Of a stretch of 64,000 bases of DNA, positions 34,034-40,340 are shown in pieces. The stretch spans positions 254,200,001 through 254,264,000 of the forward strand of contig OZ024742.1 of NCBI GenBank assembly GCA_964016885.1, given 5' to 3'. Source of the DNA: Eledone cirrhosa. Its lineage: Eukaryota. The position numbers and the translations under genes were made by a program. Under the pieces are notes generated by a model that searched no databases, was not told the DNA's origin, and was given only the letters and a program-made list of their open reading frames with translations. Numbering within the stretch: position 1 is the first letter of the stretch; each line of letters opens with the position of its first letter.

Positions 34034-35468
34034 TGAGAATAAACGTGCTGCGTGGTTGCTAATGGGTTACATATGAATAAAGTTAGTCCTTCATCAGTGA
34101 TCTTCCAACCATCATTGGTATTCCATCGCTTTAAAGACCATATACCTCCGGTTGGTGCGAGCAACAGCTAAAAAAAGTCGTTGGGACACGTAAATAAAGG
34201 GGACACGAGAGTGTAAACAAATAAAGATGGTGAAGCAACGAAAAGTGAGGAAGAAAGAGTCAAGTCCCAAATTTCCATGAATATAAGTTCGGTGGAATCG
34301 TGAACGAGAGAGAATAAAGACCAACAAACCTGGTTGGAATGTGAGCAAGGAAGGAATTCCGTACAGGTCTAACGGGAGGAAGAAGGGATCTAGTCTGTGA
34401 ATTCGGTGAACGTAAGTTCTATGAAATCGTAGACGAGAGAGAGAAAAATATCCGCTTTTTTTCTCTCTCTCGTCTACGATTTCACAGAACTTACGTTCAC
34501 CGAATTCACAGACTAGATCCCTTCTTCCTCCCGTTAGACCTGTACGGAATTCCTTCCTTGCTCACATTCCAACCAGGTTTGATGGTCTTTATTCTCTCTC
34601 GTTCACGATTTCACCGAACTTATATTCATGGAAATTTGGGACTTGACTCTTTCTTCCTCATTTTTCGTTGCTTCACCATCTTTGTTTGTTTACACTCTCG
34701 TGTCCCCTTCATTTCCGTGTCCCAACGACTTTTTTAGCCGTTGCTCGCACCAACCGGAGGTATATGGTCTTTAAAGCGATGAAATACCAATGATGGTTGG
34801 AAGATCACTGATGAAGGACTAACTTTATTCATATGTAACCCATTAGCAACCACGCAGCACGTTTATTCTCATATTTACACATATTTTTTGCCCCGCTGTG
34901 ACCCGTCTATTTCGTTCTTACTGCTTCCTCTTTCTCTGTATTTTTACCGTCTCTAACAGTCACTCTCTCTGTTAGCCTCTTCCTCACCCTTCACTCACTC
35001 ACTCTCTGTTACTACCTCTCCTCCTCCTCCTTCTTCCCGTTTGACCTGCGCGTAATTCTTTTCTTTCGCACCCTTGGTCAGGCAGGTCGCTTTTTTTCTC
35101 TCTCTCGTCTACGATTTCCTAGAACTTACGTTCACCGAATTCACAGACTAGATTCCTTCTTCCTCCCGTTAGACCTGTACGGAATTCCTTCCTTGCTCAC
35201 ATTCCAACCAGGTTTGATGGTCTTTATTCTCTCTCGTTCACGATTTCACAGAACTTATATTCATGGAAATTTGGGACTTGACTCTTTCTTCCTCACTTTT
35301 CGTTGCTTCACCATCTTTGTTTGTTTACACTCTGGTGTCCCCTTTATTTCCGTGTCCCAACGACTTTTTTTAGCCGTTGCTCGCACCAACCGGAGGTATA
35401 TGGTCTTTAAAGCGATGAAATACCAATGATGGTTGGAAGATCACTGATGATGGACTAACTTTATTCAT
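34034..35468. mobile_element. 635-bp repeat unit arranged as inverted copy + forward copy + partial tandem copy, between (TA)n tracts
   Basis: 34034-34446 is the reverse complement of ~34457-34873. 34453 onward recurs from 35088. This inverted-plus-tandem layout is typical of PLE terminal repeats (inference). Confidence 0.8.
34759..34847 (+). ncRNA. Candidate permuted (pseudoknotted) hammerhead-like RNA; further copies at ~34060-34146 (-) and 35395-35468 (+)
   Basis: GGTA-T-A-TGGTCTT-taaa-gcgat-GAAA-TACC-(12 nt)-AAGATCA-CTGATGA. Pairings covary with the 496-bp family. Confidence 0.5.
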
Positions 35469-35500
35469 ATATATATATATATATATATATATATATATAT

Positions 35501-35645
35501 ATATTTATTAAAATAACAGATTAAAATTTAAGCAAAGAATCGCTGCTTTCACCCTTAACGGGATCTTCTGAGTTTCAGAAGTTCCCGTTAAGGGTGAAAG
35601 CAGCGATTCTTTGCTTAAACTTTAATCTGTTATTTTAATAAATAT
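35501..35645. repeat. ~70-bp-arm near-perfect palindrome abutting (TA)n
   Basis: atatttattaaaataacagattaaa...gggatcttctga-gtt-tcagaagttccc...ctgttattttaataaatat. Confidence 0.95.
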
Positions 35646-35932
35646 TTGCTCTACGGTTCTTATATATTTGATATATATTTATCCTTATCAAGCCCTCTTT
35701 GGATTTTAGTCTTCAAATTTATTATTATTACTATATATATATATATATAATCTTTTTCCATTTATCTGAGGGTTCTAAACCCCATTGTCAGGCTAAAATT
35801 CCTTTAGTCAAAAATACGGTGAAAGCTATTCTATTTTCTAATTTCAAACCTGCTCACAGTTTCAAAACATACTTACTTGCGATATATATATATATATAGT
35901 AATAATTTTCTTATATATATATATAGTAATAA

Positions 35933-36088
35933 TTTTCTTCCTAACGGAAAAAGAAAAGAATACTCACAGCAAAAGAAGAATTATCTTGTTCACACCCGCC
36001 TTTTCCCTTAAAGTAAACACTAATGTTGGTAAGAAGTTTTTAGATTTAATAGATATCCATTACCCACCACAACATTCATACAGTAAAT
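35933..36088 (+). mobile_element. Penelope-like element fragment, duplicate of 37311-37467
   Basis: KRRIILFTPAFSLKVNTNVGKKFLDLIDIHYPPQH, the post-RT region of PLEs. Confidence 0.8.
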
Positions 36089-37310: not shown

Positions 37311-38420
37311 TTTCTTCCTAACGGGAAAAGAAAAAAATACTCACAGCAAAAGAAGAATTATCTTGTTCACACCCGCCTTTTCCCTTAAAGTAAACACTAA
37401 TGTTGGTAAGAAGTTTTTAGATTTAATAGATATCCATTACCCACCACAACATTCACACAGTAAAATATTCAATTGCAATTCTGTCAAGATATTCTATTCA
37501 TGTGGACCGTGTATGAGATAAAAAATTACTGCAAAAAATATACCCAACATTAATGCAAGTTGCTCTTGTAGGATTAAAGAGTACTGCCGTCTCCAACAGA
37601 AATATAATATAAAATCCGTTGTGTATGAGGCAGAGATTACACATAATAACACAGAAAATTCTGAAGTAAGCGATCAGTATGATGCAAGATCATTTTAAAC
37701 AACGTTTTTATATGCATCTGCACTCCTTCAGGAATCCTGATATGCGAACTAGTACAGTCCGAGCCAAAAACGTCTGGCAATTAAAGGAGAAATTTGTATC
37801 ACATAAGATTACTTAAAGTATTCAATTCGTATACCAATGGTACCAACAGGTCGTTTCTGTTTTAGTGAGAAATTTAGAATATTAAAAGGTTTGTCATCTC
37901 AGAACAATACTTATTTGAACTCAAAGAGCAAAATTTTAGAGGATAAGTTTGATCTCAAGAGTCAACTTCTTGCTAAGTGGAAATACTCAACAAATTTGAC
38001 TGATTTTTAACGACCTTAATTTGATTCACATACATCCGTAATATCATTTCTTCCTCTCTCCACACTTACATAATACAATACACTATCTATAAAACTTTAC
38101 AACATACATTAATAAATATTACCATCTCTATATTACATTCCACCACATAATACAATACTTCTGTTATGGCATACGAACATTAACACGTGTACTATATCAC
38201 ATTTCAAATTTATATCTGGGAGCTATTTTCCTTTGTTGTAATAATTTTTTTACTTTTCATAATCTAGCGTTTTAAGCATTTCATAAACTCATTTAAACAC
38301 CTGAAGATAGGTCATAATATTGATCCCTCTTGAATTCTGGAGGTGTGGTCAATATTGGGTCTTGAAAACTTGGGTAGTGCTTTTGTTCTGTGTATGAACA
38401 TAAATAATAAAATATAATAT
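37311..38420 (+). mobile_element. 5'-truncated Penelope-like element: RT C-terminus, CxC linker, GIY-YIG relic, 3' end with HHR relic
   Basis: SKIFNCNSVKIFYSC...CSCRIKEYC...SVVYEAEIT...FKQRFYMHLHSFRN...VWQLKE...FC.SEK..I...LNSKS, then HHR-like motif, AATAAA and (TA)n. Confidence 0.85.
38295..38382 (+). ncRNA. Decayed hammerhead-like motif at the PLE 3' end
   Basis: AAACAC-CTGAAGA-long stem II (aatattgatc/ggtcaatatt)-GAAAA-CTTGGG-TA-GTGCTT. Confidence 0.55.
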
Positions 38421-38787
38421 ATATATAAATATATATATATATATATATATATATATATATATATATATATATATATATATATATATATATATATATATAT
38501 ATATATATATATATTTGTTTATACAGATATACATGATATACTGGTATTTTTAACTAGCTATAGAAACACAGAAATACCTACTTCAAGAAACAAGCAGAAG
38601 ATGAACTCTCATAAACATATATATACCCATAGAAGACTGTTTAAAATTATATGCATGTATTGAGAAATGTGTGTAATATATATATATATATATATATATA
38701 TATATATATATATATATATATATATAGAGAGAGAGAGAGAGAGAGAGAGAATTCACAAGAATCAAAGCTATGTTAAAAGCATTTATT

Positions 38788-38843
38788 CACTTACAATTGT
38801 TTCATCCAAACCTAGGCTTGGGATCTTCGGACCATTTTCAATG
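38788..38843 (-). ncRNA. Decayed hammerhead-like motif (TTGAAAA core, palindromic stem III)
   Basis: Minus strand CA-TTGAAAA-TG-GTCCGAA...TTTGGAT-GAAA-CAATTG-TA-AGTG-AATAAA, then (TC)n(TA)n. Confidence 0.5.
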
Positions 38844-39569
38844 TTTGTAGATATAATTGACCTCCTTTCCAACGCAAGAGACATAGAGATACACACATAT
38901 ATATATATTGATGTACAGTGGAGTGACATATATTATACTATTTTAATTCAAGATCAAAATCAAAATCAAAATTAAAATACATTCGCCAGATAACACAGGA
39001 GGATAGTTTGATAGTCAGATCTAGTAGGTAGTGTATGCGTTAGTTACGCATGGAGCATGCAAGTGTGTCTCATTTTTATACGATTATTGTGTGGCAAGGT
39101 GTTACATGTAATGCAAGCACTTTAAGCGGGTAAGCAAGAGTATTATGGTGGTTGTAGTGGTAGGGTATGTGAGCAGAAAAAGAAAACGAAAAAGAAGAAG
39201 CAAAAGAAAGTTATAGTTTTCGTATCCACCACCATTTTCACAATCAGAAAAAGTAAGATATAGTTTTTACATCCATCACATAAGTAACGATGATTCCGTA
39301 ATGAATGTTTGATGCATTAAATTATTGTAGCGTATTGAGGCTCAATGTTATTTAATCCATATTTATAGAATAGGTTCTTTCTACTGCGAGAATTTACAGT
39401 GGTTTATTATCCGGAAGTAGGTGTGTAATTAAGGGGAGTTAATGCGTAAGGGGAGGTAACTAGCTGATTATCATAATTAAATTCATTGTTCTAACATACA
39501 TTATATGGTGCCTCAATTTTATATGTTTTATATGTTTTCAATTTTAAATACAGTCTACTCCATCATAAT

Positions 39570-40340
39570 TTCTTTCCCTAGCGCTCATATATTCACCTAG
39601 CTTATGCTAACAGAATAATTTTTGAAGCTTGTTTCTCTCCCACGGTATGCTATCTTTTCTGTTGTTCTCCTGTCTCACTCGCTTTACGCGTTTTAATTGT
39701 CCTAATAACTTATTTTGGTTATTATTGCACCGAAGTGAGATATATGATTTTTAATGCAATGAAATATCTATGATCTTCGGCAAATCACTGATGAGGGACG
39801 TATTTTATTACATGTTACCATGTGCTACCTGCAGTATTTTTCTCTATATTTTAATACATATATTTACCACTGCGATTCTGTGTTTTTTCTCTCTCTCTTA
39901 CTGTTCCCCCATTCTCTCTGTTTCTCCCCCTCTGTCTTGTCCGTTAACTCTTCCTCACACTTTCACTCACTCACTGTTTTTCTCCCTCTTCTCTTCATTT
40001 CATCCTGCACTCACGGACGCTATTTTTTCTCTCTCTGCTCAATGGCCTTCGTTCGTGCTGGACTATTCTTTCCCTAGCGCTCATATATTCACCTAGCTTA
40101 CGCTAACAGAATAATTTTTGAAGCTTGTTTCTCTCCCACGGTATGCTATCTTTTCTGTTGTTCTCCTGTCTCACTCGCTTTACGCGTTTTAATTGTCCTA
40201 ATAACTTATTTTGGTTATTATTGCACCGAAGTGAGATATATGATTTTTAATGCAATGAAATATCTATGATCTTCGGCAAATCACTGATGAGGGACGTATT
40301 TTATTACATGTTACCATGTGCTACCTGCAGTATTTTTCTC
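39570..40340 (+). mobile_element. 496-bp tandem unit (1.55 copies), homologous to the 635-bp family
   Basis: 39571 onward recurs from 40067. Ends in (TC)n(TA)n. Shares the 80-nt gap-free core plus cgct.ttttttctctctct and ttcactcactcact blocks with 34453-35468. Confidence 0.8.
39738..39825 (+). ncRNA. Candidate permuted hammerhead-like RNA (second copy 40234-40321)
   Basis: AGATA-T-A-TGATTT-ttaat-gcaat-GAAA-TATCT-(12 nt)-AAATCA-CTGATGA. Confidence 0.5.

Follow-up and report, generated by a model that had tools for sequence, protein, structure and literature searches.

The stretch of DNA considered here (the window) comprises 64,000 nucleotides (nt) of the Eledone cirrhosa genome (assembly GCA_964016885.1, contig OZ024742.1, positions 254,200,001 to 254,264,000, forward strand). 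It carries two insertions of repeated units, termed families A and B, whose direct copies are spaced 635/636 nt apart in family A and 496 nt apart in family B, two copies each. The units (636 and 496 nt) are retrozyme-like, as they are non-coding, tandem and hold one hammerhead each. The hammerhead core is, however, wired in an unusual manner (Table 1). The reading favoured here, at a probability of about three in four, is that A and B are non-coding retroelements with a rewired hammerhead, which likely cuts their transcripts to unit RNAs; these would then be circularised and copied into DNA by the reverse transcriptase of an R2-group retrotransposon bearing an identical fold.

A first-pass annotation of the window, made from the letters alone, had described two tandem repeat families that share a candidate hammerhead core, the stems I and III of which cross. 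The coordinates, sequences, stems and core do lie where it placed them; stems I and III are in register with H17 and CTGATGA in both families, and the inverted family A copy shows the change of GAAA to GGAA, from which it is predicted to be dead. The gapless A-B alignment, given as 80 nt, extends to 108 nt (73 of 108 positions identical, 59 of 80 over the core). Despite their distinct unit lengths, the families are homologous from the predicted cut, with 69% identity over 266 nt. Unit A is the longer partly because of an internal 130-nt duplication of ~70% identity (window 35025-35300; unit positions 262-401 and 390-530). The family A insertion ends in a (TA)n run, ~66-73 nt past its second predicted cut. 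The annotation's suggestion of a constraint at the nucleotide level also held. Constraint on a protein is ruled out, since the open frame at 34902-35429 has no Pfam match and is not kept in other families.

What is the fold? From 5' to 3' the strand order is II - outer helix - GA - III' - UH - I - UAAW - II' - GAAA - III - bulge - GA - outer helix' - I' - CUGANGA. A hairpin precedes the 5' strand of stem II, which is 5 nt long and pairs with the 5 nt before GAAA; a single base separates it from the 6-bp outer helix. Stem III ends in U16.1, and stem I has 6-7 bp. On the far side of stem III lie a 3-nt bulge, a GA, the partner of the outer helix, the partner of stem I and CUGANGA. CUGANGA, GAAA and UH are all in register with stems I and III, and the core bases, UH and U16.1-A15.1 keep that register exactly while all stems vary. 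The motif would fold into a hammerhead active site. Nested minimum free energy folding, with pseudoknots outside its reach, recovers the outer helix and stem III in both A and B. A kink-turn consists of a canonical helix, a 3-nt bulge, tandem G.A/A.G pairs and a second helix, and the bulge with GA on both strands fits this consensus in A, in B and in all 14 structured metagenome matches described below. Stem III is thus predicted from sequence to be bent by a kink-turn. The usual loop-loop contact may then be replaced by the outer helix and the UAAW linker, which would keep the far ends of stems I and II next to each other. In 16 of 21 representatives the upstream hairpin has a z below -1; a downstream hairpin passes this limit in just 3. 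The construct proposed in the annotation, starting at 34740, includes stem II only just and leaves the upstream hairpin out.

The motif is abundant far beyond the window. The 3.0 Gb genome was scanned with a pattern made of the core letters, the fixed spacing and the UAAW linker, with pairing no part of it; it gave 19,205 matches vs 3 for the reversed pattern. A second pattern, likewise free of pairing and excluding families A and B at stem III, gave 531 matches vs 8. Crossing stems I and III on a hammerhead core, as first proposed, are therefore beyond chance. The four direct copies of the window have 20, 20, 21 and 21 of 21 scored positions paired, and stem I differs completely between families yet remains paired. 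Metagenome contigs yielded 33 matches with a bimodal distribution: 14 score 19-21 of 21, and 19 score 12 or less. All of the 14 carry the kink-turn GA that was not in the search; several are the same element, so that they represent some six or seven lineages. Viral contigs gave chance matches alone (1 and 36 matches, the 36 reaching at most 11 of 21), as did the prokaryotic genomes in the 14 of 64 parts scanned (120 loci, at most 13 of 21).

Pairing was assessed on 259 instances grouped into 61 clusters, 3 clusters with a spacing one base longer being left out; each helix was scored on clusters picked via the other helices, with 2000 shuffles as control. The paired fraction is 0.94 vs 0.58 shuffled for stem I (n=22), 0.91 vs 0.62 for stem III (n=25), 0.89 vs 0.59 for the outer helix (n=24) and 0.66 vs 0.52 for the upstream stem II (n=36, many of them decayed copies); none of the 2000 shuffles was as high for any of the four. 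The covariation of the two crossing stems, which the annotation had anticipated, is thus found in the larger set. A downstream stem II reached 0.43 vs 0.39, with 121 of 2000 shuffles as high, and 0.29 vs 0.33 when shifted by one. A scan of all windows ranked the upstream strand as the top stem II partner. A second test used 20 copies chosen by eye, a choice that favours the model: 93% of cells pair, vs 32-48% in slid controls, and two-sided changes occur in 20 of 23 pairs, a count equalled by 35 of 500 shuffles. Among these copies the upstream stem II is paired in 90% of cells with two-sided changes in 4 of its 5 pairs, the downstream one in 36%, and the segment between III and I' pairs with an upstream strand of its own, that of the outer helix, in 98%. 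A downstream stem II was rejected in both registers on the shuffle test and the 36% pairing. In the aligned sequences all four helices (I, II, III and outer) co-vary.

These results change the picture of stem II and its surroundings. The annotation saw a weak stem II, an R10.1-U11.1 pair followed by a GGAC hairpin, and a 12-nt link from III to I. There is instead a stem of 4-5 bp with the upstream strand; the conserved pairing of the strand before GAAA does not involve the downstream strand with its GGAC hairpin, and the supposed link is structured, with a kink-turn-like bulge and a strand of the 6-bp helix whose partner lies upstream. A local TGAT/ATCA hairpin thought to compete with stem I is not kept across families. 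Some families can indeed form the R10.1-U11.1 pair, though it is not the whole of stem II. The core-adjacent pair (10.1-11.1) is made upstream in 17 of 36 clusters, downstream in 24 and one way or the other in 32, and in families A and B the base after A9 is a possible partner of 11.1. For positions 11.2-11.5, 19-30 of 36 clusters pair with the upstream strand and 12-15 with the downstream one. A hammerhead would have a stem II closing on G12 and contiguous with A9; here at most 1 bp is contiguous with A9. As the stem II strand lies upstream of the whole motif, the backbone is open at A9/10.1 or, since the core-adjacent pair can be made either way, one base later.

Where does the motif stand among hammerheads? 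The Rfam covariance models, run with thresholds of E = 10 on window 30000-45000 and E = 1 on 5 metagenome loci, found no hammerhead in either. The closest relative is type SGC, with the order cleavage site, GAAA, CUGAnGA and cleavage validated in vitro (Eckert et al., 2023; PMC10085705). In that text the scheme of six permutations assumes that CUGAnGA and the adjacent stem II strand are contiguous; SGC hammerheads come from metatranscriptomes, with none in genomes of known organisms apart from one GCS. Common to the present motif and the type-SGC (HRIMA-1)/type-CSG hammerheads are the order cleavage site-GAAA-CUGAnGA, the crossing of stem I with stem III, a short link that leads from stem I into the stem II strand, and an extra helix that draws stems I and II together. 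That part of the topology, which the annotation took to be undescribed, is therefore already known. Beyond it lie features that SGC lacks in that text: stem II is taken from an upstream strand, so that 'block C' is split; stem III bears a kink-turn-like bulge and an outer helix; and the motif sits in animal genomes and retrotransposons. The stem II strand directly 3' of CUGAnGA is paired in 36%, and the III-to-I' segment pairs with the upstream strand of the outer helix rather than with the 3' tail in an interaction helix. The published SGC descriptor requires CGAAA, CUGAUGA(U)G and a downstream stem II, and the window copies, which read TGAAA, do not match it; standard descriptors do miss the motif, as predicted. 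The motif is a real conserved RNA structure and a hammerhead-class variant, outside type SGC as defined. Within the literature covered, with most subscription papers and the Repbase reports falling outside it, only PMC10085705 describes this order; none describes a natural kink-turn hammerhead, and none a ribozyme, hammerhead included, in HERO elements.

The anatomy of the copies was taken from 30 A and 30 B loci, top-scoring and overlapping in arrays. Their 3' ends lie ~66-73 or 113-120 nt past the cut in family A and 69, 101 or 122 nt past it in family B, mostly into (TA)n, and their 5' ends are variably truncated and often inverted. Arrays reach 10 units, and private variants are common to units within an array (L180, L183). 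Some family B arrays have unit variants that alternate with period 2 (L179, L182), and in another a 3-unit block recurs (L181); these patterns suggest dimer or trimer templates, or later duplication. Among the cores listed, 99 of 100 in A and 95 of 100 in B read through the cut region, so the template was usually continuous there. Yet 106 copies begin at the predicted cut, preceded by (TA)n. Of the 100 listed, 29 belong to family A and 27 to family B, counted by eye, vs 5 starts (A) and 10 (B) at control sites with equal TA microhomology. Ends at the predicted cut are thus ~3-6x commoner than at matched sites. Two arrays (L191, L192) begin at the cut and consist of two whole units and a tail. 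The excess of 5' ends at H17 gives indirect support, read from genomic sequence, to cutting there in vivo.

The annotation made no link to a retrotransposon. Such a link is found in metagenome contigs and in this genome, where the fold stands directly after the stop codon of R2-group elements. In the metagenome, the C-terminus of a reverse transcriptase (RT) element lies directly upstream of the motif in 9 of 14 loci (tblastn); of the other 5, there is a tail peptide in 2, 2 are too near the contig edge and 1 has none. The RT open reading frame (ORF) has an RVT_1 match and a weak zf-RVT match, and its best solved relatives (PDB) are R2 proteins. It is a single ORF with an R2-like RT and C-terminal CCHC and restriction-like endonuclease (RLE) motifs read from the sequence. 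Homologs number 458 among 8,000 scored, and those named are from fish, lancelets, lamprey and bivalves. The carrier likely belongs to the HERO clade. HERO/Zebulon elements share with it the RT, the C-terminal CCHC and PD-(D/E)xK-like region, aquatic animal hosts, microsatellite targets and a partial tandem layout. HERO is described as an RLE clade, some families of which target microsatellites (PMC4640811).

A search of the genome with the metagenome RT protein gave 107 matches. In the 30 loci examined, the ORF end is covered by 23 rows, and in 18 of these 23 an intact CUGAnGA motif follows, some rows being one place twice. Thus the core stands behind ORF ends that were located by protein search alone. 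A tail of ~40 nt then follows, often into (TA)n, and a model from which the ORF-linked motifs had been left out gives them 28-40 bits. One locus (L175) consists of a partial 3' copy and, joined to it head to tail, a full unit of 3,599 nt; in another (L184) the motif also stands ahead of the ORF. The genome also holds a second RLE retrotransposon (L261-L270), presumably Dong/R4-like, which is young and abundant, has intact ORFs of 1,141 aa and ends in (TAA)n. It was rejected as helper, since the model has no match in its 10 loci, and it serves as a negative control. R2 elements with a 5' ribozyme similar to that of hepatitis delta virus, and their SIDEs (PMC6765202), offer a parallel as RLE retrotransposons with a self-cleaving ribozyme and non-autonomous parasites. 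They differ in that the ribozyme here is hammerhead-type and follows the ORF, and the copies lie head to tail in (TA)n, not in ribosomal DNA.

How might these elements move? A read-through tandem transcript would be cut at each motif after H17, and the unit-length RNAs would be ligated into circles, possibly by host RtcB, by analogy with retrozymes, whose monomers RtcB ligates in vitro (PMC7229834). The element's RT would prime at the tail, 70-120 nt past the cut, on a nicked (TA)n target, and rolling reverse transcription would cross the ligated junction; a minority of copies might stop at the cut, on unligated RNA. The helper would be an R2-group retrotransposon, probably HERO, bearing the same fold. 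A similar model has been reviewed for Penelope-like elements (PLEs) (PMC6765202).

Could the ribozyme be active and the arrays still arise from linear RNA, by way of uncleaved concatemers or of template jumping on linear monomers? R2 RT can jump end to end between templates, which favours such a route; the read-through of nearly all listed cores would suit uncleaved RNA equally well, and copying of a multimer or later DNA duplication would suit the period-2 and period-3 arrays. Template jumps often add bases, however, whereas the cut junctions are nearly all exact. The private variants common to units within arrays, together with the ligation by RtcB mentioned above, also argue for circles, and linear templates seem a somewhat unlikely source. 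It is less likely again that A and B are mobilised by PLEs and merely share a ribozyme with the R2-group element. Tandem copies and 5' inversions would fit a Penelope-like helper, ORF fragments like Penelope-type GIY-YIG are present in the window as well as close to 5 of 110 loci, and a 2026 preprint assigns animal retrozymes to PLEs (10.64898/2026.07.22.740005). Against this, no PLE ORF ends directly at the motif in the 110 loci, but the motif does follow the ORF of the RLE element in this genome and in other animals, and A, B and the RLE element alike end in (TA)n targets.

Two further explanations concern the motif itself, and both appear improbable. Minimal hammerheads can have a stem II of 1 bp. 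The motif might then be an ordinary type SGC with such a stem after CUGAUGA, the upstream pairing being an accessory or an inhibitory switch, and the frequent pairing of 11.1 with the base after A9 (24 of 36 clusters, A and B included) would agree. In most of the ORF-linked metagenome copies, however, 11.1 has no possible partner in the downstream base, whereas with the upstream strand 5 of 5 pairs form, and further along the stem the clusters favour upstream pairing as given above. Alternatively, the motif might be a non-catalytic structure of the 3' untranslated region, bound by the retrotransposon protein and only resembling, or descended from, a hammerhead. R2-type proteins bind their RNA in this 3' region, so the location matches, and copies that mostly read through the site would fit. 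Three observations speak against this: the exact register of the core bases, UH and U16.1-A15.1, none of which is lost while every stem varies; the same core behind ORF ends found from protein alone; and the excess of 5' ends at H17.

Several points weigh against a rewired hammerhead moved by an R2-group helper. Since the clusters are not independent of one another by descent, the shuffle counts cannot be read as probabilities. In 4 of 36 clusters and in 3 of 21 representatives the core-adjacent pair can be made neither upstream nor downstream, and the upstream hairpin adjoins 10.1, so that the stacking of stem II on G12-A9 could face competition. The n-strand GA of the kink-turn is present in only 21 of 36 clusters, some older families having a plain 3-nt bulge, and the b-strand GA was built into both the A/B-excluding genome pattern and the metagenome pattern. 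The 5'-end test used one control site per family and raw counts, regardless of how many copies reach it. As to the helper, A and B have no similarity to the autonomous element outside the motif; the autonomous copies found, mostly broken and 88-96% alike, are of greater age than A and B, whose top-scoring loci are 92-100% alike, and no young intact helper is among the candidates scored.

Metazoan non-LTR (long terminal repeat) retrozymes (Cervera and de la Pena, 2020; PMC7229834) resemble families A and B in their non-coding tandem units with one hammerhead each, low GC and high copy number. They have type I hammerheads in units of 150-450 bp and are linked to PLEs, whereas the units here have 496-636 nt and, in place of a type I hammerhead, a rewired fold common to an RLE retrotransposon. 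PLEs, with type I hammerheads in pseudo-LTRs, share with the elements described here a partial tandem layout, inverted 5' segments and a ribozyme before a short 3' tail; they differ in RT, endonuclease and their standard type I topology. The window also holds hammerheads of the standard kind. The type I hammerhead at 33708-33799 (+) is in the style of PLEs, as its stem II is long and its stem III short and palindromic; decayed type I-like cores lie at 38295-38385 (+), after a Penelope-like ORF fragment (37543-38010), and at ~30945-31025 (-). Two fragments at 36459-36935 and 37543-37810 (+) are alike and without Pfam match; we take them to resemble the GIY-YIG ends of PLEs. A decayed RT fragment at 31482-32405 (+, RVT_1) is probably from an RTE-type long interspersed nuclear element. 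A near-perfect inverted repeat of ~50 bp (35518-35646) adjoins the family A insertion and is likely an inverted piece of another repeat.

Table 1. Coordinates of the insertions and of the candidate ribozyme motifs in the window
Feature	Position	Strand	Remarks
Family A insertion, direct part	34453..35473	+	5'-truncated, ~1.6 units of 635/636 nt
Family A inverted 5' segment, same insertion	34034..34448	-	ribozyme copy, H17 at 34141, GAAA to GGAA
Upstream hairpin, family A	34723..34743	+	adjoins stem II 5' strand
Ribozyme motif A1	34744..34814	+	
A1 stem II	34744-48 with 34776-80		5' strand 34744-48
A1 outer helix	34750-55 with 34795-800		
A1 kink-turn GA elements	34757-58 and 34792-93		bulge 34789-91
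A1 stem III	34759-63 with 34784-88		H17 = A34764
A1 stem I	34765-71 with 34801-07		
A1 UAAW linker	34772-75		
A1 GAA	34781-83		
A1 CUGAUGA	34808-14		
Predicted cleavage site A1	34764..34765	+	3' of A34764; from hammerhead-core analogy and genomic 5'-end excess
Ribozyme motif A2	35380..35450	+	H17 = A35400; T after A9
Family B insertion	39570..40341	+	5'-truncated, ~1.55 units of 496 nt
Upstream hairpin, family B	39704..39723	+	
Ribozyme motif B1	39724..39794	+	
B1 stem II	39724-28 with 39756-60		5 bp
B1 outer helix	39730-35 with 39775-80		
B1 stem III	39739-43 with 39764-68		H17 = A39744
B1 stem I	39745-50 with 39782-87		
B1 CUGAUGA	39788-94		
Ribozyme motif B2	40220..40290	+	H17 = A40240; identical to B1

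We lean slightly towards a broader proposition: that this is a further natural hammerhead architecture, lying outside the scheme of six permutations, open at A9/10.1 and closed by a kink-turn arm, that it is the standard ribozyme of a widespread R2-related retrotransposon clade in aquatic animals, and that the elements and their non-coding parasites replicate via circular RNA. If true, CUGAnGA and stem II would prove to be separable, contrary to the published assumption, and a natural hammerhead that contains a kink-turn would be added to those known. As the open end adjoins the core, the fold may suit RNA circularisation tools. Non-circularly permuted hammerheads would move from viroid-like metatranscriptome contigs into animal genomes, with at least 19,000 copies in one. 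The R2-group clade would gain a ribozyme after the ORF and a tandem or circular life cycle like that of Penelope-like elements, which would suggest a second source of animal retrozymes.

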